DNA of 64,000 nucleotides from the NCBI GenBank assembly GCA_001793235.1, contig MGHM01000020.1:33677-97676 (forward strand), written 5' to 3'. The notes below the pieces were generated by a model. It was not told the DNA's origin. It worked only from the letters and a program-made list of their open reading frames with translations, and made no database searches. How positions within the stretch are numbered: the first letter of the stretch is position 1; every line of letters begins with the position of its first letter. The DNA comes from Candidatus Woesebacteria bacterium RIFCSPLOWO2_01_FULL_44_24b. Its GTDB lineage: Bacteria; Patescibacteriota; Microgenomatia; UBA8517. The translations under genes and the position numbers were made by a program. Below, one piece after another: positions 6,642 to 64,000 of this stretch.

Positions 6642-6826
6642 ATTTTAAGGTCCAAGCTTTGTATTTTACACTTTGAATAACTGGAAGAAAAGATTTTGTC
6701 ATTATACGAAATCAAACGTCATTGGACCAATTCGCACCAGTAAGCTTAACGACTTGCGTCGCTTCCACTGCTGGCCGATTAAACCGATGTTCTCTCGGAG
6801 GTCTCATAACGAACCCTCATCTTAGG

Positions 6827-6863
<37 letters not shown>

Positions 6864-7096
6864 ATGGGAATGTAGCTACCCGGCGCTGCCACTGATGTGA
6901 CAACCGGCACACTAGGGATTCCCCCATCCCGGTCCTCTCGTACTGGGGACAGCTCCCTTCAAGGTTCAACGCACACACCGGATAGAGTCCGAGCTGTCTT
7001 GCGACGCTCTGAACCCAGCTCACGTAGCACTTTAACGGGCGAACAGACCGACCCTTGGGAGGTACTTCCCCCCCAGGATGTGCTGAGCCGACATCG

Positions 7097-7938
7097 CTTT
7101 AAACCCATCTACTTACGTAGTGGCCTGACTATACCTTCGTCCTCTACAACATGAAGTAGGACGCCGACGTGTTATATGAATTAAAAAATTCATATCTACT
7201 CCCTTACGAGCTAGTCGATACGGGGTTATATCGGAATTTTGTACCGCATACTTTTAATTATGTGCGGGTAGATTGTTTCCCTGAGTGTTGGAGTACTTGA
7301 GTATAAGGTTCGTATTCTAAAGTACGTTTTATCCTTATTTAATCGTGACTCTATTCCAAGTTCTCCCAAACTTTTTATTAAATTACCTTGACTCTTTAAA
7401 TCAAATTGTTGGCAATTAAAATAACTGCTTCTATATGTTTTTGAACCATCGTCCATATACCAGACAGCTAAAGATAGTGGGGATAACTTTAAATTATCCG
7501 GAATTATCTTTTTGCCATTCAGGTAAAATCTGCCATAGAAAACAGTAAGTTCGGGAATGCTTTTGATAAAGAATCTGTAACCAACACGGCCTGCATTGCC
7601 TCGATAAGCTTTGGGAGGAGTGATGACAATATCTTTTAAAATTTGATATTTCCAATCAACGTACTCTTTTTGCTTTATAAGCGAAGCTTGTGAACTTCGT
7701 TCATCGAATGCGTAATTTGCAAATGCGCATTAGTTTTCTTTCTCAAATATCCATCACCAAGGATGCAACCCAAAATTATTTGTTGTTGAATATCCGATAA
7801 ACTTCCCACGGTGTTGTCCCCTGAATTCAGCTTAACCCAAAGTTAAACCGAATTTCAAGTTGGAGTTCACCGTTATGAGTCGGTATTTTTAAAACAGCAT
7901 TCCGGTATTTCTACCGGAAGACCCCGATGTCATTGTTG
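7097..7938 (-). mobile_element. Group I intron in 23S rRNA at an E. coli ~L2500-equivalent site
   Basis: The exon junction is reconstructed as '...GTTCGCTACCT | intron | CGATGTCGGCTCAGCACATCCTGGGG...'. The 5' exon ends in U and the intron ends in G, as expected for group I; the ~842-nt insert carries a LAGLIDADG ORF. Confidence 0.7.
7226..7830 (-). pseudogene. Intron-encoded LAGLIDADG homing endonuclease, disrupted by a frameshift
   Basis: Frame A from GTG gives 'VGSLSDIQQQIILGCILGDGYLRKKTNAHLQITHSMNEVHKLRL*', which is the first LAGLIDADG motif. A +1 frame then continues '...KQKEYVDWKYQILKD...LAVWYMDDGSKTYRSS...KIPI*', carrying the second motif. The ORF track lists only the 76-aa 3' fragment (7226-7456). 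Confidence 0.6.
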
Positions 7939-9294
7939 AGGTAGCGAACCGCATCGTCGATATGGACTCTCGGATGCGACTACTCTGTTATCCCCGGCGT
8001 AGCTTTTATCTATTAAGCTCCGTCCGCACCCATTGCGAAACGGAGGATCACTAAGACCTACTTTCGTACCTGCTTGGCCCATCGGCCTCGCAGTCAAGCT
8101 GGCTTATACCTTTGCGCTTACCCCACGATTTCCATCCGTGGTTAGCCAACCTTTGCGTCCCTGCGTTACCTTTTTGCAGGGTACCGCCCCAGTAAAACTG
8201 CCCATCTGACACTTTTCCCGGACGCGTTTCAAGCGTCCCTGAGTAAGATCTGCCACATTTTAAAGAGAGGTGTTACATTGGCGTCCCGCAAAGCGGGACT
8301 CCCTCTTACGCTAGACAATTAAAATGCACAGCTCAATGCCAGAATACAGTAAAGCTGCACGGGGTCTTTTTGTCCTGGTGTGTGTAGGCCGCGTCTTCAC
8401 AGCCATCGCAATTTCGCCGAGTGATAGTTTAAGACAGTTGTCAGCTCGTTACGCCTTTCGTGCGGGTCTGAACTTACCAGACAAGGAACTTCGCTACCGT
8501 AGAACAGTTATAGTTACTGCTGCCGTTTACTGGAGCTTCATTTCAGAGCATCCCGCCAAAGGCGGGGCACCCATCCACTTAACTTACCAGCACTGGGCAG
8601 GCGTCAGCCCGTATACTTAAGCTTTCGCTTTTGCACGGACCTGTGTTTTTGGTAAACAGTCGACTGACAATCGTTAGCTGCGATCCCTACACCATAAATG
8701 GTGAGGGACAGGACATCTTGCGAACTTACGTCCAGCTAATTTGCCGAGTTCCTTAAACTACCTTCTCTCGCTCGCCTTGGTCTACTCGACCAACCCACCT
8801 GTGTCGGTTTGCGGTACGGCTCGCTTTGATACTCACTGCGAATTTTTTCTTGTAAACTGAAACGGTCAGAATTGGCGAACTCTCGCTCACCTCTGCATCG
8901 CCGCTTAATTAATCATCTTGATGGGTTTTCCAATCAAGACTATCTCACGGCTTACACTCCAATCAATAAGAAGCTCTGACGCTCCAATTCAGTCAATCCC
9001 CAGTTGCATGCAGTCCCTTGCGGGTGCAAACGCATCAAAACAAGTACGGGAATATTAACCCGTTATCCATCGACTACGCCCTTAGGCCTCGCCTTAGGTG
9101 CCGACTTACTCCCGGAGGACGAACCTCGCCGGGAAAACCTTGGGTTTTCGGCGTCCCGAATTCTCATCGGGATTTCACGCTACTCATACCGGCATTCTCA
9201 CTTCCAAGCGCTCCACCATGGTTTCCACCACAGCTTCACTGCACTTGGAACGCTCCCCTACCACCTCGCTCGCAGAGCGAGAAATTCTAAATTT

Positions 9295-9425
9295 AAAATT
9301 TGAAATTTTTAATCAAATAAAAATACTAAAATCTAAACTTCAAAAATTAGAAATTAGATATTAAAAATTGATTTAAAATTAAAAACTAAAAACTAAAAAT
9401 TCTCGTTCTACGAACGAGATCCGTA
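9295..9425 (-). other. AT-rich expansion of ~130 nt inside 23S rRNA at the helix-45 position
   Basis: Between the conserved flanks 'GGGCTAAAGTATACTACCGAAGCTACGG' and 'GGTAGGGGAGCGTTCC' (reverse-complement sense), the normal ~25-nt helix is replaced by '...aaaatactaaaatctaaacttcaaaaattagaaattagatattaaaaattgatttaaaattaaaaactaaaaactaaaaat...'. Bases 9382-9410 of the tail are a noisy ~7-nt period rather than a clean tandem repeat. Confidence 0.5.
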
Positions 9426-9502
9426 GCTTCGGTAGTATACTTTAGCCCCGCGAAATCTTAGGCGCGGAATCCCTTGACCAGTGAGCTGTTACGCTATCTT
9501 TA

Positions 9503-9537
<35 letters not shown>

Positions 9538-10923
9538 TTTTGGAATTCCACTTCCTTAAACACTGAGTATACATTTTGGGACCTTAACTGACGGTCTGGG
9601 TTGTTTCCCTTTCGTCTCTAGAGCTTAGCCCCTAGAGACTGTCTAGTCCGTTAATGTGATTGTAATTCGGAGTTTGATTAAATCGCCTTGGTTTCCCTTG
9701 GCGACCCATTCAGTAGCTCTACCTCCAATCCACCTAGCGGACCACGGTGCCCATACACCTTTCGGGGAGAACCAGCTATCTCCAGGCTCGTTTGGCATTT
9801 TACCCCTAGCCACAAGTCATCCGAGCATATTGCAACATACAACGGTTCGGCCCTCCTTCCCGCTTTCGCGGGAATTCAGCCTGCTCATGGCTAGATCGCC
9901 TGGTTTCGGGTCTATCATGCACTACTAATTGCACTATTAGTACTCGCTTTCGCTGCGCTTTTGAGCCATAAGCCCTTAAGCTTGCAGTACACGATAACTC
10001 GCCGGTTCATTCTTCAATAGGCACGAGATCACTCGCGCTCTGCGCGAAAGTTACGAAGTGATTAAGTTAATAAGTTATTAAGTTTTGTTTTACTTAATCT
10101 CTTAATCGCTTAATGTCTTCATATCTTTTGTGCAAAGCACAAGCTCTCTCGGTTTGTCTGCAAACAGTTTCATGTTCTATTTCACTGTGCGTTCCGCACT
10201 TCTTTTCACCTTTCCCTCTCGGTACTTGTTCACTATCGGTCCTTTGTTATATTTAGCCTTGGAGGATGGTCCCCCCAGATTCCCACAGATTGTGACCGTG
10301 GTACTCAGGTGCCCACTAGGCTGATAATTAGTTTTGCTTACGCGAGTTTCACGCTCTTTGCTCATCCATTCCAGAATGTTCTGCTACCAATTATCAATGC
10401 CATATCGTGAGTCCTACAACCGATCACCCCATTAGATAAAAATATCTAACGGGGCAAAATTTGGGCTGTTGCCGTTTCGCTCGCCGCTACTTAGGCAATC
10501 TCGTTGATTTCTCTTCCTCACCCTACTTAGATGTTTCAGTTCGGATGGTTCCCTCGCCTGCAGCTATATTCCGGTAAACCGGAAATTTTACCACAGTGTG
10601 GCCCAGGATGAACTGGGCCAGGTTTCCCCATTCGGACACCGCCGGATCAAAGCTTCGTGGCAGCTCCCCGACGACTTTCGCGGCCATGTACGTCCTTCAT
10701 AGGTAACAAAGGCCAAGGTATCCACTGTTTGCATTTTTTAGACGCTTGATTCCGTACAATCCCGCTGAGCGGGACGGACACAACTCCCTCGAGTTGTATA
10801 CGGAATCGCCTTTTCTTCCAGTTGTCAAAGTACAAAATATTAGAGTTAAAGAGTAAAAGAGTAAAAGGTAAAAGTTTGGTCTTTCACTCTCTTGCTCTCT
10901 CGCTCTTTCACTCTAAGTGGGTG

Positions 10924-14299: not shown

Positions 14300-14420
14300 G
14301 TCACACAGAGGTTAGGAATGAAGTAGCAAGTAGAATGTAGAAAGTAGTATGGGAATTTTGTATCTCCCTTGCTACATGCTTCATGCTACATACTACATGT
14401 TTCCTAGCTTCTCTGTGACT
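14300..14420. repeat. ORF-less inverted-repeat copy of the heptamer-repeat IVS-cassette ends, with an extra outer inverted repeat
   Basis: Left arm 14321-14357 'aagtagcaagtagaatgtagaaagtagtatgggaatt' and right arm 14371-14400 'gctacatgcttcatgctacatactacatg' are inverted copies of the inverted repeats flanking 57583-57951. An outer imperfect inverted repeat flanks them ('tcacacagag', 14301-14310; 'ctctgtgact', 14411-14420). Confidence 0.5.
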
Positions 14421-20964: not shown

Positions 20965-22060
20965 GGTTATTCATTGTATACCAATTAATTCCACCTTGTC
21001 ATTCCCGCGAAAGCGGGAATCCACACTAATAATCTGGTCTGGTTACAATAGATTCCGGATCAAGTCCGGAATGACAATGAAGTTTCTCTTGGCAGCCTGA
21101 CAGCGATTGAAATATGGAACCCTACGACCCCATCACCATTTCAAGTGACTAAATTAGTTTTCACTTCAAATTAAAGTCTTGCTAATTTAATAACCAGAAA
21201 TGGTGAGGGGAAGAGTTCGGTTTATTTTCCCCAAAACCGTGACTTTAAAGGGGGGTGTTAATCCCGTGAGATAGTCTTGCGACATCTAACAGGACGTGTG
21301 TTTATTCACACTCCTTAGAAAGGAGGTGATCCATCCGCTCCTTCCAGAACGGATACCTTGTTACGACTTAAGCCTTATCGCTAGTTTCACCTTCTTCCGA
21401 TCACTCGGAATTCGGGTGCCCCTAACTTTACTGCCTTGACGGGCGGTGTGTACAAGACCTGAGAACGTATTCACCGGGATTTAGCTGACTCCCGATTACT
21501 ACCAATTCCGCGTTCATGAGGGCGAATTGCAGCCCTCAATCCCCACTGAGACATCGTTTATGGGATTAGCTCCGCCTTACGGCTTGGCAACCCATTGTCG
21601 ATGCCATTGTATTATGTGTGTAGCCCTGGACATAAGGGCCATGCTGACCTGACGTCGTCCCCACTTCCTTCTGATACAAAGATCAAAAAGTCTCCTATGA
21701 TTATTCAACATAGGACAGGGGTTGCGCTCGTTACCCCACTTAAGGGAACACCCCACGGCACGAGCTGACGACGGCCATGCAACACCTGTGCTATCATCCC
21801 AAATAAATTTAGGATCATCCCAATTTTCATCAGAACTAAAACGATAGCATGTCAAGTCCAGGTAAGGTTCTTCGGTTTGTCTCGAATTAAACCACATAAT
21901 CCACTGGTTGTGCAGGTCCCCGTCAATTCCTTTGAGTTTTAAACTTGCGTTCGTACTCCCCAGGCGGTCCGCTTCACGCGTTAGCTTACGCCCCTCTCCC
22001 GCTAAGCGGGAGAAAAAAGCTAGCGGACATAGTTTACGGCTAGGACTACAGGGGTCTCTA

Positions 22061-22928
22061 CTATATTGTTACATTCTCTAATTAATAGAGAAGATCTTGT
22101 CATTTCTGCAAGATTCTACATATTACTATGCAGCTCGGACTATATCATAACCCGTCCCGTTAGATAATTTATCTAATGGGATTGGGTCCCGACATGTAGT
22201 CTCTACGGGGTCTGTATTCTCGCTGAATAAGGAAGAAATTTATATTTAAATTCCGGTAAAATGAATTTGAAAACTTGTTTTCGAAGTTTACTCAAACTTT
22301 GTTTAGGAAAATAAATTATATCTCTACCCTTATTTTTGTGAGTTAAAGTTTCAATCTCAAAATTAGTGAGTATTGCTTCTTGCAACCTTTGTACATCTTT
22401 CGCAGTAAATGAATGAGTTTGGATGGACAGTCCAGCGTATTCTGCCGAACCATCATCCATAATCCATACTGCAAAAGAAAGTGGATTGCTTAGCAATACA
22501 TTTATGTTTGCAGGCACAATCTTTTTAAAAGACGGGTAAAATAAGTCATAATATGCAGTAAATTCTGGATGGGTATGAGTGACGAATTCGGCAAATTTAT
22601 AATCTTTTTTACCAACTCGCTGCTCAAAAACATTAACATCCATTGAAATAAAATTTGCAAATACAAAATATTTATATAAAACTAATGGAAGTTGATTTCT
22701 CGAGTGCTTAATATGCAATCGAGCATTCTTTCCATGAAGTTTTATTGCTCCATCTCCTAAAAGTGTCCCTACCAACACAGCCTTTTGAGTTTCACTTAAA
22801 CAGACTTCCCTCGGTATTGTCCTCATAATTTCAGTATACTAAAGATATACCGAAATAGTAGGATATTCACCGATACAGTCAGTTTTTCTCACTGCTAATT
22901 ACTTAGCAGGGGGACTAGAGTTTTACTC
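22061..22928 (-). mobile_element. Group I intron in 16S rRNA at the E. coli position ~788 site
   Basis: Exon 1 ends '...GGGAGCGAAAGGGAT' (E. coli '...GGGGAGCAAACAGGAT'), and exon 2 resumes 'TAGAGACCCCTGTAGTCC' (E. coli 'TAGATACCCTGGTAGTCC'). The 5' exon ends in U and the intron ends in G; the ~868-nt insert contains an intact LAGLIDADG ORF. Confidence 0.7.
22203..22826 (-). CDS. LAGLIDADG homing endonuclease (intron-encoded, intact)
   Basis: 207-aa protein with both LAGLIDADG motifs ('AVLVGTLLGDGAI' and 'SFAVWIMDDGSA'), lying entirely within the 16S intron. Confidence 0.8.
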   Translation of the reverse strand: MRTIPREVCLSETQKAVLVGTLLGDGAIKLHGKNARLHIKHSRNQLPLVLYKYFVFANFISMDVNVFEQRVGKKDYKFAEFVTHTHPEFTAYYDLFYPSFKKIVPANINVLLSNPLSFAVWIMDDGSAEYAGLSIQTHSFTAKDVQRLQEAILTNFEIETLTHKNKGRDIIYFPKQSLSKLRKQVFKFILPEFKYKFLPYSARIQTP

Positions 22929-23842
22929 CATCCCTTTCGCTCCCCTAGCTGTCGTTCCTCAGCGTCAAGATTTGCTTAGTCACCCGCCTTCGCCTTCGGA
23001 GTTCCTGTCGATATCAACGGATTTCACCCCTACACCGACAGTTCCAGTGACCCCAACATTCTTCAAGCACGTAAGTATCGCGTCCCTTTCCCCAGTTAAG
23101 CTGGGGTCTTTGAAACGCGACTTTACGTGCCGCCTACGAAACACTTTACGCCCAATAAATCCGGGCAACGCTTACACCCTTCGTATTACCGCTGCTGCTG
23201 GCACGAAGTTAGCCGGTGCTTATTCTACCCCGCCTTTCAGAGGGGTCAAAAGAAGTTTACAACCCGAAGGCCTTCATCCTTCACGCGGCGTCACGGCATC
23301 AGACTTGCGTCCATTGTGCACGATTCCCTGTTGCTGCCACCCGTAGGTGTATAGGCCGTGTCTCAGTCCTATTCTGGGGGTACGCGCTCTCACGCCCCCT
23401 AACCGTCGTAGTCTTGGTAAGCCATTACCTCACCAACAAACTGATGGTGCGCAGGTTCCTCCATCGGCGGGCAGTTAAGCCCTTTGCCCTTGCGGGATTA
23501 TGCGGTATTACCCCACCTTTCGGTGGACTATTCCACACCAATGGGTAGATCCCTACGTGTTACTCAGCCGTTCGCAACTGTTCCGGCAAGCCGGAACCGT
23601 TCTACTTGCATGCATAAAGTACGCCGCCAGCGTTTACCCTGGGCCAGGATCAAACCCTCAATTAAGTGGATTTATATTAAAATCCTGGGACCAATTCCAA
23701 TCGCTGTCAGACTGTCAAAGAGCTTTAGCTCGAAGACCCCTTCGTAGTTCCGGTAAAACCGGAACGAAGTGGGGTCAAAGTTCTAAAGTAATCTTGAAGT
23801 TATTAACCCCGCCTTGTTCGGCTGGCAAGTTAACTTGATTAG

Positions 23843-31922: not shown

Positions 31923-32459
31923 ATGTATATGGTCAAACATGGGTCAAAGCACTTGAGGCATAACACCCCTACCCAGGAAGAGCTAAAGGAGATCAAAAGA
32001 AACCCGATTTATCTGGTTTTAGATAATGTACTTGATACATATAATATCGGTTCGCTTTTCAGGCTCGCGGACGCCATAGCGGCCGAAAAGTTATATATTT
32101 GCGGAGACTCCGAATATCCGCCATCGTCAAGAATCCACAAATCTGCCGTCGGCACCGAAGAATGGGTGCCTTGGGCGAAAGCAGACAAAGCAATTGAGGT
32201 TATTAAGAGATTAAGAGATAAAGGAGTACGGATAATCTCGGTTGAACAAAATCCCCAAGCTACCAGCTACAAACTACTAACTCCCAATTTTCCTTGTGCC
32301 ATTGTTGTGGGCCACGAAACCAAAGGTGTTTCAAAAGAGGTTTTAAAGCTCTCCGACATTATTGTTGAGCTCCCAATGTACGGCGTCAATAAATCATTTA
32401 ATGTATGGGGATCAGCAGCTGTGATTGCCTACAAAATACTCGAAACTTTAGGAAGATAG
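31923..32459 (+). CDS. SpoU/TrmH-family RNA 2'-O-methyltransferase
   Basis: 'IYLVLDNVLDTYNIGSLFRLADAIAAEKLYI' and the C-terminal knot motifs 'VELPMYGVNKSFNVWGSAAVIAY' of SPOUT methyltransferases. Confidence 0.8.
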   Translation: MYMVKHGSKHLRHNTPTQEELKEIKRNPIYLVLDNVLDTYNIGSLFRLADAIAAEKLYICGDSEYPPSSRIHKSAVGTEEWVPWAKADKAIEVIKRLRDKGVRIISVEQNPQATSYKLLTPNFPCAIVVGHETKGVSKEVLKLSDIIVELPMYGVNKSFNVWGSAAVIAYKILETLGR

Positions 32460-45421: not shown

Positions 45422-45912
45422 GTTTCATCCAAAACTTTATCTAATATCTCCTTTTCCTCAGATGTAAAATCTTGTAGCACATACTGCTCTCCTGGAGTTC
45501 GATTGTTTGAATCACGATTATCAACTCCAACCCGCACCCGCCAGAAGTCATCGGTTCCAAGAGCCTTCTCGATAGAATTTATACCCTTGTGAACCTTGGG
45601 GCCCTTGCCTTTTTGAATTTTATACTCGCCAAGTTTGATGTCTAAGTCATCGTGAACGATATATAAATCAGTAGAAAGTAGCATGTAGTATGTAGCAAGG
45701 GATTTCACAGACCCCCCGGAATTGTTCATCATAGTTAAAGGCTTTGAAAGAATTAGCTTATCTTTCTGTGCAATTTCCGAGTGGAGCTTTTTGGAAATTG
45801 AAAATTGTAAATTGTAAATTGCTGCCAGCTTGTCTAGCAAAATAAAGCCCACGTTATGCCTTGTGTTTTTATATTTATCACCAACATTACCAAGCCCGAC
45901 TACTACCTTCAT
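45397..45912 (-). CDS. pth: Peptidyl-tRNA hydrolase
   Basis: 'VVGLGNVGDKYKNTRHNVGF...MNNSGGSV...IVHDDLDIKLGEYKIQKGKGPKVHKGINSI' are Pth motifs. It contains an in-frame copy of the heptamer repeat at 45670-45705. Confidence 0.85.
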   Translation of the reverse strand: MKVVVGLGNVGDKYKNTRHNVGFILLDKLAAIYNLQFSISKKLHSEIAQKDKLILSKPLTMMNNSGGSVKSLATYYMLLSTDLYIVHDDLDIKLGEYKIQKGKGPKVHKGINSIEKALGTDDFWRVRVGVDNRDSNNRTPGEQYVLQDFTSEEKEILDKVLDETCKKLATL

Positions 45913-55609: not shown

Positions 55610-56461
55610 TTAAATTTTTTGGCAATGCGGGCAGTAGTAAGTCCCTCGGCCACCTAAGGCGATCTTTTTGAATCTATCTTTTTTGCATCTTGTACACAAA
55701 GCACCTTGCTTGCCATAGGCCAGAAAGTACTTTTGATAACTCCCTTCGCCACCGTCCGGAGTAACAAACGCAAGCTCGCTTGCTCCCCCGGCCTCTATTC
55801 CCTTTTTCAAAACTTTTTCTATAGATTTAAAAAGCTGAGTTTGTTCACTTAAACTTAAGCTGTTCGCGGCTCTTCCGGGGTGGACTTTAGCATCCCACAA
55901 GGCATCATTGGCATAAATATTTCCAACTCCCCCCATTTTGCTCTGGTCCATTAAAACCACTTTCACCTGCCTTTTTGTTTTCCCCAAAATTTCTTTGAAA
56001 GTTTTCAAGTCCAGCTTGCCAAAAGGTTCCGGGCCCAATTTTTTAATAAAGCCAAACTCTTCTACATCTTTGGTTTTGGTTAGCTTTATCCAGCCAAAAC
56101 GGCGGATGTCGTTGTAATACAAAAAACCTTTATTGTCTAATTTAAAAATTACATGAGTGTGCCCGCCTGGAACTCCACCGGAAACTTTCTTGGACAAAGC
56201 CGGGTGTTTTACAAGTTTTGGCCCTCTGTAAATAAACTGGCCGGTTAGCTTTATATGAGTTACCGTGGAGTATCCATTATCAAAATCAAAAACCAAAACC
56301 TTGCCGAACCTTCTAATGCTTTTGAATTTTGCGCCAACTATTGGCGTAAAGTCATCAGGTGCAACTTTTTTGTTTTTGACTTCAACATCCATTACTTCAT
56401 GGCCAACGACAAATTTTTCAAGTTGATTTCTAATTGCTTGGACTTCAGGAAGTTCCGGCAT
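55610..56461 (-). CDS. mutM: Formamidopyrimidine-DNA glycosylase (Fpg/MutM)
   Basis: N-terminal 'MPELPEV', a helix-two-turn-helix region and a C-terminal zinc finger 'CTRCKKD...CPHC'. Confidence 0.85.
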   Translation of the reverse strand: MPELPEVQAIRNQLEKFVVGHEVMDVEVKNKKVAPDDFTPIVGAKFKSIRRFGKVLVFDFDNGYSTVTHIKLTGQFIYRGPKLVKHPALSKKVSGGVPGGHTHVIFKLDNKGFLYYNDIRRFGWIKLTKTKDVEEFGFIKKLGPEPFGKLDLKTFKEILGKTKRQVKVVLMDQSKMGGVGNIYANDALWDAKVHPGRAANSLSLSEQTQLFKSIEKVLKKGIEAGGASELAFVTPDGGEGSYQKYFLAYGKQGALCTRCKKDRFKKIALGGRGTYYCPHCQKI

Positions 56462-57545
56462 ATTTTTGTATTATACTCCTAACTTCATTCTCAAATCTCT
56501 CTTTGCTAAATTTCTTTGCGTGATTCCTGATAACATCTTTATTCCACTTTATCTTTTCTGACTTCTTAATGGCCTTAGCAATTGCCTCAGTGGTTAATTC
56601 ATTGAAGAATAAACCAGTCTTTCCTTCCACCACGCTTTCCAAATAGCCTTCTGCACGAAACGCAATAGTTGGCGTTCCGTAACTTGCGGCTTCCAAGGGA
56701 GTCATGCCAAAGTCCTCATCTTTCTGGGCAACTATGAAAGCATTTGCATTTGTGTACAAATTGGCTAACTCATCATCTGAAACTCGCCCAAGGAACTCAA
56801 CTTTATTACTCGCAATTTTTCTTAAGTTTTTTTCTTCAACCCCTGAGCCAAAAATCTTCAATTTAACATCAGCTTTTTTACAAGCTTTGATAATTAAATC
56901 AAAATTTTTAGTCCTCACCATTCTGCCGCCGGTTAAATAATGTGTAGAATGTAGCATGTAGGATGTAGCATGGGGAGATTCAATAGGCGGATACACAACA
57001 GCGTAATCCTTGCGCCTGTAAAACTTCTCAATTCGCCTGCCAACATTTTTAGAGTTTGCAATAAAATATGTCACTTTTTGAGCCTGAGTAAAGTCATACA
57101 TTCTCATAAAGTGATTGACGACCAAAGCGTAAATTTTGACAGCACCGGCAAACCACAAACTTTGCCAGTCGCGTGAAGTGTCATATCCCCACAAATATCT
57201 TGGCGGCGTATGAAGGTAACAAATCTCTTTTTTAGCGCCCTTCATGCCCTTGGTTACAGCCCAAGAGGCGCTTGTTATCACTAAATCATATTTTGAAAAG
57301 TTGAAACTATTCCAAACCAAGGGAACCAAAAACCGCAAAGGAGAAATAAGTTTATCTGCAAAAGGCAAATACGAAAACCAAGACTGAATTATTTTTTTAT
57401 CTTTAAATTCTTTCCCACATGGAGAGTCTTTTTTAAAATAAATTGTATAAATTGGAGCCTTGGGATAAATCTCAGAAAGCGCCAAAAGCACTCTCTCCGC
57501 TCCCCCAAATTCGTTTAGATAATCGTGTACCAGTGCAATTCGCAT
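56445..57545 (-). CDS. Family 4 glycosyltransferase
   Basis: 'MRIALVHDYLNEFGGAERVL' (GT4 N-terminus) and 'EDFGMTPLEAASYGTPTIA' (E-x7-E). The start is taken at 57545; the ORF-track start at 57563 reads into the heptamer repeat. An in-frame heptamer repeat copy lies at 56941-56976. Confidence 0.8.
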   Translation of the reverse strand: MRIALVHDYLNEFGGAERVLLALSEIYPKAPIYTIYFKKDSPCGKEFKDKKIIQSWFSYLPFADKLISPLRFLVPLVWNSFNFSKYDLVITSASWAVTKGMKGAKKEICYLHTPPRYLWGYDTSRDWQSLWFAGAVKIYALVVNHFMRMYDFTQAQKVTYFIANSKNVGRRIEKFYRRKDYAVVYPPIESPHATSYMLHSTHYLTGGRMVRTKNFDLIIKACKKADVKLKIFGSGVEEKNLRKIASNKVEFLGRVSDDELANLYTNANAFIVAQKDEDFGMTPLEAASYGTPTIAFRAEGYLESVVEGKTGLFFNELTTEAIAKAIKKSEKIKWNKDVIRNHAKKFSKERFENEVRSIIQKYAGTS

Positions 57546-57584
57546 ACATGTAGAATGTAGCATGTAGAACGTAGAATGGGAATT
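57546..57584. repeat. Left terminal inverted repeat of the IVS-like cassette (heptamer 'NATGTAG' units ending 'ATGGGAATT')
   Basis: 'acatgtagaatgtagcatgtagaacgtagaatgggaatt' abuts the stop codon of the four-helix-bundle ORF at one end and the GT4 start codon at the other. Confidence 0.6.
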
Positions 57585-57951
57585 ATTCCTTGTTCCGAAT
57601 GCTTTTAATCAAACCCGTTAATAACTTGTGAACTGTTACTGTTAATTCTGCGGTCTCTTCAAACTTATCTTTCTTCAAATAACCCAAATCTTTAGAAATA
57701 AGAAGCTGGTTTTGAAGCTCGGACAATGAACCTTGAGCCATGTAATAAAATTGCATCTTTTCCTGTTTGCCTCTTCTTCCAAAGCCTTCTGCAATATTGC
57801 TTGTTATCGAAACAGCAGCTCGTTGCATTTGATTCGTTAAAGAAAACCTCTCTTTTTCGGGAAACTGATTGGTAATTTTGTATATTATCAGGACCAGCTT
57901 ATGTCCTTCCCTCCACGCATTTAGCTCTGTAAATTTGGTGATTGTCCCCAT
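57583..57951 (-). CDS. Four-helix-bundle protein of the '23S rRNA intervening-sequence protein' / DGR Avd family
   Basis: 'TELNAWREGHKLVLIIYKITNQFPEKERFSLTNQMQRAAVSITSNIAEGFGR...FYYMAQGSLSELQNQLLISKDLGYL' matches the conserved pattern of the IVS-protein family (TIGR02436 / PF05635-like). Confidence 0.75.
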   Translation of the reverse strand: MGTITKFTELNAWREGHKLVLIIYKITNQFPEKERFSLTNQMQRAAVSITSNIAEGFGRRGKQEKMQFYYMAQGSLSELQNQLLISKDLGYLKKDKFEETAELTVTVHKLLTGLIKSIRNKE

Positions 57952-57990
57952 GCTACATACTACTTTCTACTTGCTACATCAGAGCAGACT
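57952..57990. repeat. Right terminal inverted repeat of the IVS-like cassette
   Basis: 'gctacatactactttctacttgctacatcagagcagac' is the reverse complement of the left arm pattern ('gatgtagcaagtagaaagtagtatgtagcATGGGGAca'). It starts 1 nt after the ORF start codon and overlaps the last codons of the exonuclease gene. Confidence 0.6.
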
Positions 57991-58884
57991 CATCTGTTTT
58001 TCCTCTTCTACTTTCTTCCCCACTTCTTTCACTCTTCGGCTTAATGTTCGAAAACCGTATTGTTCGAAAAGCTGTGTTACTTTATCCGAATCAAGCTGCC
58101 AAGACTTGGCTTTCCCCAAGTCAAAGTTAATATCAACATCCGTTACAATTTTTGCTAAGGTTTGTGATTGATAAGCCGAGTCTTTAAAAGTAGTTAGTTT
58201 TTCTTTAAGCTTTTCGGGCAGCTCGTCCAAATACTTATAAATATTATCTAAAGTTTTGTATTTTGCCAGAAGTGTGACCGCGGTTTTGGGACCAATACCG
58301 GGCACTCCTTTATAGTTGTCTGAAGGGTCCCCAACCAGTGCTTTAAAATCCACTATCTGCCCGGGCCCCACTCCCATTCGCTCAACGGTTTCTTTGACTC
58401 CAAACTCCTTGGCGTCCGTAAGACCCTTGAGAGGCATATACAAAAACGTCTCCCCTTTTTCATCAACAAGCTGGAGCATATCGCGGTCCCCGGTAATTAT
58501 TAAGGTTTTTATTTTGGCTTTTTTCACTTTCTCGGCAATGCTTCCGATAACATCATCCGCCTCAAAGCCTGCTTTATCATAAATCGGAATTCCCAGGGCA
58601 CGAATTACATTTTGAGCTTTTTCAAACTGAGTCGAAAGCGCCTCCTCCATTTCCGGTCTCTGTGCCTGATAACTTTCAAGAATCTTTTTTCTAAAAGTGG
58701 GTTCCGGGCGGTCAAAAGCAAAGATAATGTGCGTGGGGGCCACATCCTGAATAACTTTCAAAAGCATGGAAATAAGCCCATAAACGGCATTAATGGGCTC
58801 GCCGTTTCGAGCAGTTAACGGAGGCAGGGCATGATAAGCCCTGTGCATTATGGCGTTGCCGTCAAATAATACAAGTTTGTTCAT
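57979..58884 (-). CDS. 5'-3' exonuclease (standalone Pol I N-terminal / FEN-like domain)
   Basis: 'LVLFDGNAIMHRAYHA', acidic metal-binding residues 'GFEADDVIGS...ITGDRDMLQL' and a helix-hairpin-helix 'GVPGIGPKTAVTLL'. Confidence 0.85.
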   Translation of the reverse strand: MNKLVLFDGNAIMHRAYHALPPLTARNGEPINAVYGLISMLLKVIQDVAPTHIIFAFDRPEPTFRKKILESYQAQRPEMEEALSTQFEKAQNVIRALGIPIYDKAGFEADDVIGSIAEKVKKAKIKTLIITGDRDMLQLVDEKGETFLYMPLKGLTDAKEFGVKETVERMGVGPGQIVDFKALVGDPSDNYKGVPGIGPKTAVTLLAKYKTLDNIYKYLDELPEKLKEKLTTFKDSAYQSQTLAKIVTDVDINFDLGKAKSWQLDSDKVTQLFEQYGFRTLSRRVKEVGKKVEEEKQMSLL

Positions 58885-59114
58885 TTTTCAGAACTTAATA
58901 ACTTAAAGTATTCTTCTCTTGAGATTTTAGCAGTTCTTAGATTATTTTGAACTATAAACGTGGGGACTTGTTTATACATTGGAATTAAAATGGGACGAAC
59001 AAAGCCTTTCTTTATATAAACTAGGTGATCTCCTTTTGTTCTTATGTATTTCCACCCTGATTTTTCAAACACTCCTGCAAGTTTTTTCCAATGAACTGGC
59101 GCAACATGAGGCAT
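58881..59114 (-). CDS. HicA-family toxin (mRNA interferase)
   Basis: 'HWKKLAGVFEKSGWKYIRTKGDHLVYIK...ILIPMYKQVPTFIVQNNLRTAKISREEYFKLL' is a YcfA/HicA fold. Confidence 0.65.
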   Translation of the reverse strand: MPHVAPVHWKKLAGVFEKSGWKYIRTKGDHLVYIKKGFVRPILIPMYKQVPTFIVQNNLRTAKISREEYFKLLSSEK

Positions 59115-59117
59115 TGA

Positions 59118-59399
59118 TTAATTGACAGCAGGAAATCTAAATGGTTCAAAAATAATTCGCGGAGACTTCCAATTTTTCTTCTCTTTCTCAAAACCTGCTT
59201 CTTCCAAAAGCTGATTTAATTTGCCTTTCTTTTCAGCTTCCTCAAGAACTATTTCAACTGCTTCGTGAAGGTTTTTCCGAGCTTTTTCTTCAGTCTTGCC
59301 ACATGAGCTTACATCGAGCTCGGGATTATATGCTACATACGGCGCTTCTTTTGAGCGCCCGTCATACATCATCTTTATTGTCATTGGTAGGTTTTGCAT
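59118..59399 (-). CDS. HicB-family antitoxin
   Basis: 'YVAYNPELDVSSCGKTEEKARKNLHEAVEIVLEEA' is an RNase H-like HicB N-terminal domain; it is adjacent to HicA. Confidence 0.6.
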   Translation of the reverse strand: MQNLPMTIKMMYDGRSKEAPYVAYNPELDVSSCGKTEEKARKNLHEAVEIVLEEAEKKGKLNQLLEEAGFEKEKKNWKSPRIIFEPFRFPAVN

Positions 59400-63283: not shown

Positions 63284-63498
63284 TAGGCTATGTTAGCTTA
63301 AATTGAAGTAAATTGGAAGTTAAAATTTGTTGCCTCACGCTGCCTGAGTGCCCGACTCGAACGGGACGCCAAGTCGTAAGTGTTTAGGGTAGCTAATCCG
63401 ATATTCCTCTCACGACGTATCGGGTAATACTCGATTGCTAACCGTACCCACAAAGGGACCGACCCTTTGCCAATCCTCAGGCAGAGAAAGGCAACAAG

Positions 63499-63571
63499 TA
63501 CCAGCGACAGGGATCGAACCTGTGACCCGCGGTTTATGATTCCGCTGCTCTACCAACTGAGCTACGCTGGC
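63499..63571 (-). tRNA. tRNA with CAU anticodon (elongator Met, or Ile2 if lysidinylated)
   Basis: Reverse complement 'GCCAGCGTAGCTCAGTTGGTAGAGCAGCGGAATCATAAACCGCGGGTCACAGGTTCGATCCCTGTCGCTGGTA' resembles E. coli tRNA-Met(m); anticodon loop 'ATCATAA'. Confidence 0.75.
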
Positions 63572-63639: not shown

Positions 63640-64000
63640 ATGTCTAACAGCTATTTTTACATGCGGGGTAGTGTACGGCTGCACGGAAGGCTCAAAATGG
63701 GCCCGTCTAGTAGCAATATTAGAATGAGAACTTGGCTATATCGGCGAAACCTAAATTATTAAACATGGCAACGCCGAGGAAAGGCCCCACTTAGCGGGGA
63801 ATCCGTAGAGACTATACGCCGAGCCCCATTAGATGAGAAATCTATCTAACGGGGATGACATAGTCCGACACTCACCGAAAGATGAGGTAACAGAAAAGCA
63901 TAATCTTCCAGACCGGGTCCGACTCCCGGCCCCGCAACAAGGCACAATTCTGCGCCTTGCTTCGGAGGGTACAGTACTGTACCCTCCTTCGCCAGGAGCT
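63640..64000. ncRNA. Candidate structured non-coding RNA (identity unresolved; RNase P RNA or similar possible), truncated by the window end
   Basis: 360 nt with no ORF of 60 aa or more on any frame; dense hairpins ('ccccacttagcgggg', 'ccccattagatgagaaatctatctaacgggg', 'ccgggtccgactcccgg') and a perfect 24-nt palindrome 'ggagggtacagtactgtaccctcc'; contains 'GAGGAAAGGCCCC' and 'GGTAACAGAAAAGC', which loosely resemble RNase P conserved regions I and V. Confidence 0.3.

Follow-up and report, generated by a model that had tools for sequence, protein, structure and literature searches.

A free-standing PF05635 gene enclosed by inverted heptamer arrays in a Woesebacteria genome: a candidate intervening-sequence-type cassette between two protein-coding genes

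The helix-45 intervening sequence (IVS) of Coxiella carries three or four GACAGAT units ahead of an open reading frame (ORF) of the PF05635 family, and these heptamers lie in a 28-bp terminal stem that is cut by RNase III (PMC4990558). The family is large, with thousands of homologues, and the function of the “23S rRNA intervening sequence protein” (IVP) has been a puzzle since the 1990s. A structurally related protein, Avd, is found in diversity-generating retroelements (DGRs): in the DGR ribonucleoprotein, five Avd protomers all contact one stem-loop, the flipped-out bases of which are held in crevices between protomers (10.1101/2023.10.23.563531). A second long-standing puzzle is the excess of heptameric tandem repeats in bacteria, including the short tandemly repeated repetitive (STRR) sequences of cyanobacteria. 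Heptameric simple repeats such as GGGAATC (Xanthomonas) and GGGGAYT (Nostoc) are over-represented, often as convergent inverted intergenic pairs whose positions are conserved between related genomes; they are unexplained, slippage having been proposed as their cause (PMC4692102). The tetranucleotide GTAG, for its part, is the tag of the repetitive extragenic palindromic (REP) elements cut by RAYT transposases (PMC3733652). Here, we describe a locus of Candidatus Woesebacteria bacterium RIFCSPLOWO2_01_FULL_44_24b in which a PF05635 gene, bracketed by two inverted arrays of heptamers, stands between the genes for a 5′-3′ exonuclease and a GT4 glycosyltransferase. The stretch of DNA analysed (contig MGHM01000020.1; 64,000 nucleotides) is called the window, and positions refer to it. 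We lean, if only slightly, towards reading the cassette as a free-standing IVS-type element, that is, an Avd-like PF05635 gene in inverted arrays of about five heptamers, transcribed within an operon, whose arms pair as a stem.

The IVP encoded by the cassette matches PF05635 with an E-value of 8.6e-37 (126 bits; cut-off 33.8) and TIGR02436 with 2.5e-35 (121 bits; cut-off 24). In Candidatus Woesebacteria bacterium RIFCSPHIGHO2_01_FULL_44_21, a hypothetical protein has the same sequence (100% identity). An AlphaFold (AF2) model, made from an alignment of 36 homologues, consists of four long helices (residues 11–27, 32–58, 62–88 and 94–119; pLDDT 96). The nearest structure found by Foldseek is Xcc0516 (2gsc; TM 0.90, 40% identity), the next is BT_0352 (2rld; TM 0.78), and the DGR protein Avd follows (4dwl; TM about 0.79, 13–16% identity). 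An earlier note on this DNA had taken the ORF for a four-helix bundle of the IVS/Avd family, and profiles, model and structure comparison all agree with it. Since 2gsc and 2rld are each deposited with chains A–E and Avd is a pentamer, the IVP is, by analogy, probably homopentameric. The 64-kb window holds no second IVP gene.

The kinship with Avd raises the question of a DGR remnant, an Avd gene left behind after loss of the reverse transcriptase and the template repeat. The protein scores just below the cut-off of the bAvd Pfam profile (39.2 bits against 40), has a PHROG match named “Avd protein of DGR” (1.6e-16) and shares the fold as said; these points are outweighed by a score far below the cut-off of the Avd equivalog NF033474 (34.5 bits against 80), by the far better fit to PF05635 and TIGR02436, and by the recurrence of the layout, equally devoid of a reverse transcriptase, in 73 loci (see below). 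At the level of motifs, no ORF of 150 or more amino acids in the window has the YxDD signature of reverse transcriptases, except the LAGLIDADG endonuclease in the 23S rRNA gene, and no direct repeat of at least 40 nt, as a pair of template and variable repeats would present, occurs in the 64 kb. A DGR origin is therefore hardly credible and was rejected, as the note, seeing no reverse transcriptase nearby, had concluded.

Each arm of the cassette measures 35 nt and follows the design (NNNGTAG)x4 + NNNGGGR, and the two arms are inverted relative to each other (Table 1); a repeat search returned the inverted repeat over 33 nt at 79% complementarity. The arms of about 38 nt that had been announced are thus real, with slightly tighter limits: positions 57981–57990 are exonuclease coding sequence and lie outside the arm. 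The cassette does sit between the exonuclease and GT4 genes, outside rRNA, and its placement is codon-precise, as claimed. The stop codon of the exonuclease gene (TGA, 57979–57981) overlaps the first unit of the 5′ arm, and the IVP start codon (57949–57951) lies within the last; the IVP stop codon (TAA, 57583–57585) is followed by one base, the 3′ arm, one further base and the GT4 start codon (57543–57545). An in-frame ATG inside the 3′ arm (57561–57563) would add six residues to GT4 (MLHSTC; 57546–57563, minus strand); the gene callers of the public assemblies start GT4 at the ATG of 57545.

The window contains 14 matches to the heptamer pattern, where 0.09 would be expected, and 7 is the sole tandem period among those of 5–10 nt that is present. 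The sequence of the locus is identical across 2.4 kb in three independent assemblies, by which an assembly artefact is ruled out. We found no promoter or terminator consensus in the arms, the counts being at or below shuffle expectation, and so discarded the idea that they serve as either.

To describe the layout in relatives, a JGI metagenome scan with two conserved peptide patterns yielded 593 matches, the best 80 of which were examined (L121–L200); statistics on arms refer to the 73 non-redundant loci of the Candidate Phyla Radiation (CPR) among these 80. In nearly every locus, tandem heptamers run into the ATG of the IVP gene and complementary heptamers start from its stop codon. Autocorrelation at period 7 reaches 0.60 and 0.56 at the two ORF ends, compared with about 0.25 at other lags, and stringent period-7 tracts are present at 35 of 73 5′ ends and at 52 of 73 3′ ends, where 1.2 would be expected from their density elsewhere in the loci. 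The modal arm length is five units. The core of the unit is GTAT in 26 loci, GAAT in 24 and GTAG in 10, and the class is concordant between the 5′ and 3′ arms of a locus (diagonal counts of 7, 20 and 19). Neighbouring genes are co-oriented with the cassette upstream (65/68) as well as downstream (53/61), at median gaps of 33 and 35 nt, which implies that the arms make up the entire spacer. None of the 80 related CPR loci lies within rRNA. A period of 7 as a means to place a stop codon in all three frames was also considered and dropped, the excess among 5′ arms being too weak (27/73; 18.9 expected).

Period-7 tracts are frequent elsewhere in the CPR loci, too (0.32 per kb). Together with the over-representation of heptameric repeats in bacteria, for which slippage has been proposed (PMC4692102), and with the exclusive presence of period 7 in the window, this would suit tracts that are neutral products of polymerase slippage, gathered in the sole non-coding bases around a small gene and devoid of function. 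We judge this very improbable. The tracts are about 30–45-fold enriched at IVP ends, inverted in orientation, concordant in unit class between arms and defined in length at five units. Their sequence is invariant across the three assemblies, and the arms of the window and of its relative L205 agree in 33 of 35 positions where the exonucleases are only 60% identical. Moreover, the same GTAG+GGG arm recurs in many phyla far above expectation (see below).

The arms had been predicted to pair, and folding supports this. In the 456-nt sense RNA, the arms pair with each other in a long-range stem, in the minimum free energy fold and in the centroid fold alike; joined by a tetraloop, the arms reach −27 to −32 kcal/mol (z −5 to −6.4), and their intermolecular duplex has an energy of −26.8 kcal/mol. 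Across the CPR loci, the duplex energy is −19.6 kcal/mol for arms of the same locus, −11.3 for arms of different loci and −9.7 for shuffled arms (p about 1e-12). Watson–Crick pairing at unit positions 1 to 7 amounts to.98,.87,.97,.86,.63,.81 and.60, so that mismatches are periodic.

The exonuclease/GT4 junction exists with and without the cassette in related genomes. The three closest GT4 orthologs (75–78% identity; exonucleases 75–89% identical to that of the window) are at loci without the 445-bp cassette; there, the genes for the exonuclease and GT4 adjoin directly, at TAATG or TAAAAAATG (empty-site loci are labelled L201–L204). At the same junction, three deeper relatives each carry a PF05635 cassette: L205 (exonuclease 60%, IVP 77% identical to those of the window), L121 (exonuclease 58%, IVP 69%, GT4 about 65%) and L174 (exonuclease 52%, IVP 57%; arms of the GAAT/GTAT type). 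The IVP of L205 is the closest homologue in a collection of 5.8 billion proteins, and it is the 3′ arm of this locus that is 33/35 identical to that of the window.

Being shared with relatives whose exonuclease is only 52–60% identical, the cassette is probably old at this junction; the note's codon-precise insertion holds for its precision, and probably not as a recent event. As the window nests among empty-site relatives while the deeper relatives are filled, the cassette must either have been precisely lost at least twice or have been gained repeatedly at this junction.

Such presence/absence polymorphism at one exact junction could also reflect DNA-level terminal inverted repeats, the cassette and ORF-less hairpins made of the same arms being mobile in the manner of miniature inverted-repeat transposable elements or REPs, moved in trans or via hairpin or cruciform intermediates. 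Hundreds of family members reside in unrelated contexts, and the hairpins occur in the window as well as in at least 25 loci of many phyla; GTAG also tags the RAYT-cut REP elements (PMC3733652), and the missing preference for G:U among arm mismatches, described below, is compatible with symmetry at the DNA level. We nevertheless consider mobility of this kind unlikely. No transposase or recombinase was found in the cassette or its neighbourhood, a comparison of filled with empty junctions reveals no target-site duplication, and there is no second cassette copy in the 64-kb window. Synteny persists across deep divergence, with the IVP diverging to a similar extent as the flanking genes; REPs, with a single unpaired GTAG and a short stem, are unlike these arrays; and the co-orientation bias argues for a function, or selection, at the level of the transcript. 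A role of the arms in gain and loss at the DNA level may, all the same, coexist with a role in RNA.

The arm motif is dispersed in the window. The earlier note had recommended a search of the genome for heptamer copies; in the window, such a search returned five arms besides those of the cassette, two in an ORF-less hairpin (A) and three as lone arms within genes (B, C and E), and the 35-nt design of five units is fixed across all seven copies. The inner end of hairpin A, ATGGGAATT, resembles the first codons of IVP genes. The lone arms are in the genes for peptidyl-tRNA hydrolase (Pth), GT4 and a SpoU-family methyltransferase, and all of them share one phase and have CTAC in the sense strand, as the 3′ arm also does where it continues into GT4; the GTAG strand would place TAG in every frame. 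The 5′ arm of the cassette would pair no less well with the lone arms of GT4 (−29.0 kcal/mol) and Pth (−32.6 kcal/mol) than with its own partner.

The Pth segment with lone arm B can be aligned to solved Pth structures without a gap, and the GT4 linker with arm C does not exceed that of 120 orthologs in length. None of the three in-gene arms makes its protein longer; as neither Pth nor GT4 is longer than its orthologs there, simple insertion of these two arms was ruled out. In two Pth orthologs (52–57% identical), the same codons spell (T/G)CCCTTG and then four CTAC spaced by 7 nt, and synonymous sites nearby differ. Some 100 nt from arm B, the Pth gene of the window has a second tract, CAATTTA x4 in the sense direction, which codes AIYNLQFSIS; at this position in L210, the Pth ortholog has a longer insertion, in frame, of repeats and a palindrome. 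Each of the five GT4 orthologs read has a heptamer tract as its linker, the units being CTACATN, AAATACT, AGTATCA and ACCACCG. Between the peptides YPPI and YYLTGGR (L201, L203, L204 and L121), the unit and even its orientation differ per ortholog; the heptamers translate into peptides with a period of seven amino acids, and the linker is hypervariable in the 120 orthologs. One arm class per genome, which we had considered, is contradicted by L121, where the IVP arms are of the GTAG class and the units of the GT4 linker are ACCACCG, and by the CAATTTA tract in the Pth gene of the window.

Outside CPR, we scanned one genome per species with an exact GTAG-arm pattern. The GTAG+GGG arm occurs in at least 120 loci, where we estimate that about one would be expected, and those listed belong to Patescibacteria, Acidobacteriota, Chloroflexota, Verrucomicrobiota, Firmicutes, Proteobacteria, Cyanobacteria, Bacteroidota and Actinobacteria. 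At least 25 of the arrays are hairpins, at least 9 have a partner at cassette distance, and at least 76 are lone. At least six of these loci contain a PF05635 ORF and, among the matches listed, all six ORFs are bracketed by inverted heptamer arrays; in two cases, the units are unrelated to GTAG, namely AAGATTG (Flavobacterium) and GAGGTCA (a verrucomicrobial metagenome-assembled genome). Family members with heptamer arrays come from Chloroflexota, Bacteroidota, Verrucomicrobiota and Nostocales.

PF05635 genes on plasmids of cultured bacteria are mostly those of Nostocales and Riemerella; the sample of such plasmids comprised four loci. Inverted arrays accompany the PF05635 genes of Nostoc punctiforme (AGTCAGG), Calothrix (GGGTGTA) and Riemerella (GGTTCAA). 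On plasmid pPg_01 of Pseudanabaena galeata (L212, NZ_CP112875.1 46268–46627), the PF05635 gene is located between cas6 and cas4. A “23S rRNA IVP” has been listed among CRISPR-associated proteins (PMC10910872), and placement of the Pseudanabaena type may explain this.

Several of our observations weigh against a paired stem formed in the transcript around an IVP gene. The fold of the whole 456-nt transcript is no more stable than that of shuffled sequences (z −0.76), as would be expected when the interior is coding. Mismatches between arms show no wobble bias specific to RNA (53 G:U, 55 A:C), and selection for pairing specifically in the sense RNA is, since G:U is not favoured over A:C, not demonstrated. 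Arm identity in the best register is 0.66, against 0.47–0.55 for shifts of 7 or 14 nt, which is only a modest advantage, and position-specific complementarity was abandoned. As the note had it, the arms are inverted and built of heptamers, and they pair. They are not exact inverted copies of each other, however, but have the character of arrays of a single unit, and a protein-binding array would fit this as well as a stem does. The Pseudanabaena gene is flanked by direct arrays (AAAGCTA x12 upstream, AAAAGCC x9 downstream), and at 1517–1974 of L098, GTAG-type inverted arrays 400 nt apart surround a gene for YggX/Iron_traffic (PF04362), not PF05635. This case and the conserved lone arms show that the arm sequence has a value of its own, apart from the ORF.

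Several of these traits would be at home in a pair of binding-site arrays, in single-stranded RNA or in DNA, where each heptamer is contacted by one protomer in a TRAP/GAG-like manner and the IVP regulates itself and acts in trans on Pth, GT4 and SpoU; autoregulation of IVP translation is suggested by the start codon lying in the last arm unit. The modal length of five units would match the five chains of the homologous structures, and the 35-nt design fixed in all seven copies of the window, the similarity at the level of the unit and not of the position, the lack of G:U bias and the direct arrays of Pseudanabaena all point the same way, as does lone arm B, kept at the DNA level in distant Pth orthologs where neighbouring synonymous sites differ. 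In addition, IVP sequence goes together with arm class, which a locus shares with its nearest IVP neighbour in 38 of 46 cases, against 17.6 expected. This fits co-evolution, and common descent equally. Inverted orientation is, however, the rule, and pure single-strand binding does not require inversion; arms of the same locus pair much better than arms of different loci; and in the Avd precedent it is a stem-loop, not single-stranded repeats, that is bound. We therefore hold two such arrays to be a rather unlikely alternative.

For the IVS-type element that we favour, the following course can be proposed. The cassette would be transcribed as part of an exonuclease–GT4 operon, as suggested by the lack of room for a promoter or terminator of its own and by the strong co-orientation bias. 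In the transcript, the arrays would pair into an imperfect stem of about 25–30 bp with mismatches every 7 nt and the ORF looped out, and the stop codon upstream and the start codon downstream would come to lie side by side at the base of this stem. The insertion would thereby stay harmless to its neighbours, much as the stem of an IVS keeps rRNA functional. The periodic stem would be a likely recognition site for RNase III, by analogy to the Coxiella IVS, and could be bound by the encoded pentamer, by analogy to Avd; we infer stem formation in vivo, cleavage and pentamer binding. A stem of about five units with a mismatch or flipped base every 7 nt, beside a gene whose product has pentameric relatives, recalls the DGR ribonucleoprotein.

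A wider proposal, which we offer as speculation, is that the PF05635 pentamer and the inverted heptamer arrays belong together as the two parts of a single, widespread system. The pentamer would recognise five-unit arrays of its own class, and the dispersed intergenic hairpins and the in-frame lone arms, maintained as DNA sequence in essential genes such as that for Pth, would be its targets in a genome-wide network of RNA or DNA tagging or of regulation. If this were true, the over-representation of heptamers in bacteria and the role of the rRNA IVS proteins would both be explained. The locus and its relatives physically couple these two puzzles, for the gene is enclosed codon to codon and the unit class co-varies between arms and with the protein. 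The layout would account for a gene that resides harmlessly in an operon or in rRNA, and for the IVP genes inside cas operons that surface in association screens. The main value of the finding lies in its generality.

The window has a G+C content of 44%, its 16S, 23S and 5S rRNA genes are unlinked, and the genome looks like one of the CPR type. Both large rRNA genes are extended: the 23S gene spans 4.0 kb, against 2.9 kb for the model, and the 16S gene 2.3 kb against 1.5 kb, with about 0.8 kb of insertions. The 23S gene contains two ORF-less hairpin insertions made of short tandem repeats, the arms of the second having an 8-nt period, (GAUUAAGN)x3 and (CUUAAUNA)x3. The site between CUACCGAAGCUACGG and GGUGGUAGGGGAGCG is, going by the E. 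coli sequence, presumably the helix 45 region, and the two insertions appear to occupy classic IVS sites, in the helix 25 and helix 45 regions. A further insertion in the same gene includes an ORF for a LAGLIDADG_2 homing endonuclease, and a match to a group I intron lies beside a tRNA-Met gene.

The gene order at the cassette is FtsH, a CYTH protein, a HicB-like ORF, HicA, the 5′-3′ exonuclease, the IVP ORF, GT4, Fpg and RecF, all on the minus strand except the gene for the CYTH protein (plus). The HicA toxin gene and the small HicB-like ORF are directly upstream of the exonuclease gene; where the window has this pair, its closest relatives L201 and L203 have different small ORFs.

Table 1. 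Positions, in the window, of the cassette, the other arm copies and further features mentioned in the text.
Feature	Position	Strand	Remarks
5′ arm of the cassette, five heptamers	57946–57980	−	GATGTAG CAAGTAG AAAGTAG TATGTAG CATGGGG, read on the minus strand
IVP gene	57583–57951	−	122-aa PF05635/TIGR02436 four-helix-bundle protein (profile matches, AF2 model, Foldseek)
3′ arm of the cassette, five heptamers	57547–57581	−	plus strand CATGTAG AATGTAG CATGTAG AACGTAG AATGGGA; CUAC-type complement in the mRNA
5′-3′ exonuclease gene, upstream neighbour	57979–58884	−	stop codon provided by first arm unit
GT4 glycosyltransferase gene, downstream neighbour	56445–57545	−	start codon 1 base past the 3′ arm
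ORF-less hairpin A	14320–14399		two facing arms, 10-nt loop, intergenic; z −2.4 and −3.6
Lone arm B, in Pth gene	45668–45702	−	in frame, codes SLATYYMLLSTD
Lone arm C, in GT4 interdomain linker	56941–56975	−	in frame, five units, codes SPHATSYMLHST
Lone arm E, in SpoU-family methyltransferase gene	32253–32284	+	CCCCAAG CTACCAG CTACAAA CTACTAA CTCC; codes PQATSYKLLTP
CAATTTA tract in Pth gene	45790–45823	−
HicA toxin gene (PF07927) and HicB-like ORF	58881–59399	−
23S rRNA gene	6711–10748
LAGLIDADG_2 ORF in the 23S rRNA gene	7229–7729	−	PF03161, 2.6e-26
23S hairpin insertion 1	9265–9420 or 10030–10130	−	between CUACCGAAGCUACGG and GGUGGUAGGGGAGCG; 5′ arm UUUUUAG x3; dG −53.4, z −7.6
23S hairpin insertion 2	the other of 9265–9420 and 10030–10130	−	Rfam LSU (large subunit rRNA) model position 583/584, helix 25 region; dG −40.6, z −7.0
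16S rRNA gene	21319–23665
tRNA-Met gene	63498–63571		strand opposite to the group I intron match
Group I intron match	63683–63887	+	Rfam, 67 bits

Compared with known systems, the IVP matches no protein model of a defence system in PADLOC, and a known anti-phage defence gene was ruled out on these grounds. The cassette shares with REPs and REPINs (REP doublets forming hairpins) the short, dispersed, palindromic GTAG elements that occur singly or as inverted pairs, flank genes and are sometimes intragenic (PMC3733652). A REP has one unpaired GTAG beside a stem of 5–13 bp, whereas the cassette has paired GTAG at intervals of 7 nt, four to an arm; the sister loci have GTAT or GAAT as core, and the gene flanked is PF05635, not a tyrosine transposase. 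Given this difference in architecture, we excluded a REP/RAYT element.

With the heptameric simple sequence repeats (SSRs) and the cyanobacterial STRRs, the cassette has in common tandem 7-nt units in inverted pairs, and PF05635 genes of Nostoc and Calothrix are flanked by such units. Unlike the published repeats, its arrays count about five units and abut start and stop codons, and the SSR literature makes no link to PF05635. Our search of the available library found no publication connecting heptamer repeats with the PF05635 family, which does not prove the link unpublished. With Avd, the IVP shares the four-helix-bundle fold, homologous structures that are pentameric, and the precedent of a pentamer that binds an RNA stem-loop beside its own gene. 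It differs in its identity of 13–16%, its score below the equivalog cut-off, and the lack of a reverse transcriptase and of template and variable repeats.

The closest likeness claimed by the note, that to the IVSs of rRNA, is well founded in the Coxiella helix-45 IVS with its heptamers, RNase III-cut stem and PF05635 ORF (PMC4990558). Measured by the strict definition of a 23S IVS, the cassette has the extended terminal inverted-repeat stem and lies elsewhere than in helix 9, 25 or 45 of the 23S rRNA: it stands between protein-coding genes, 47 kb from the 23S gene. In all its remaining traits, its architecture is that of the ORF-bearing IVSs. Excision by RNase III is, for the cassette of the window, a prediction, and its arms also occur alone inside coding sequences, two further differences from the Coxiella IVS. 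Like the ORF-bearing 23S IVSs (Coxiella burnetii helix 45 with S23p; Leptospira), it combines a PF05635 ORF with terminal inverted repeats and a long stem. As in Coxiella, finally, tandem heptamers (there GACAGAT x3–4) reach the start codon of an ORF that is, in the window presumably, part of a host transcript and has no promoter of its own (PMC4990558).

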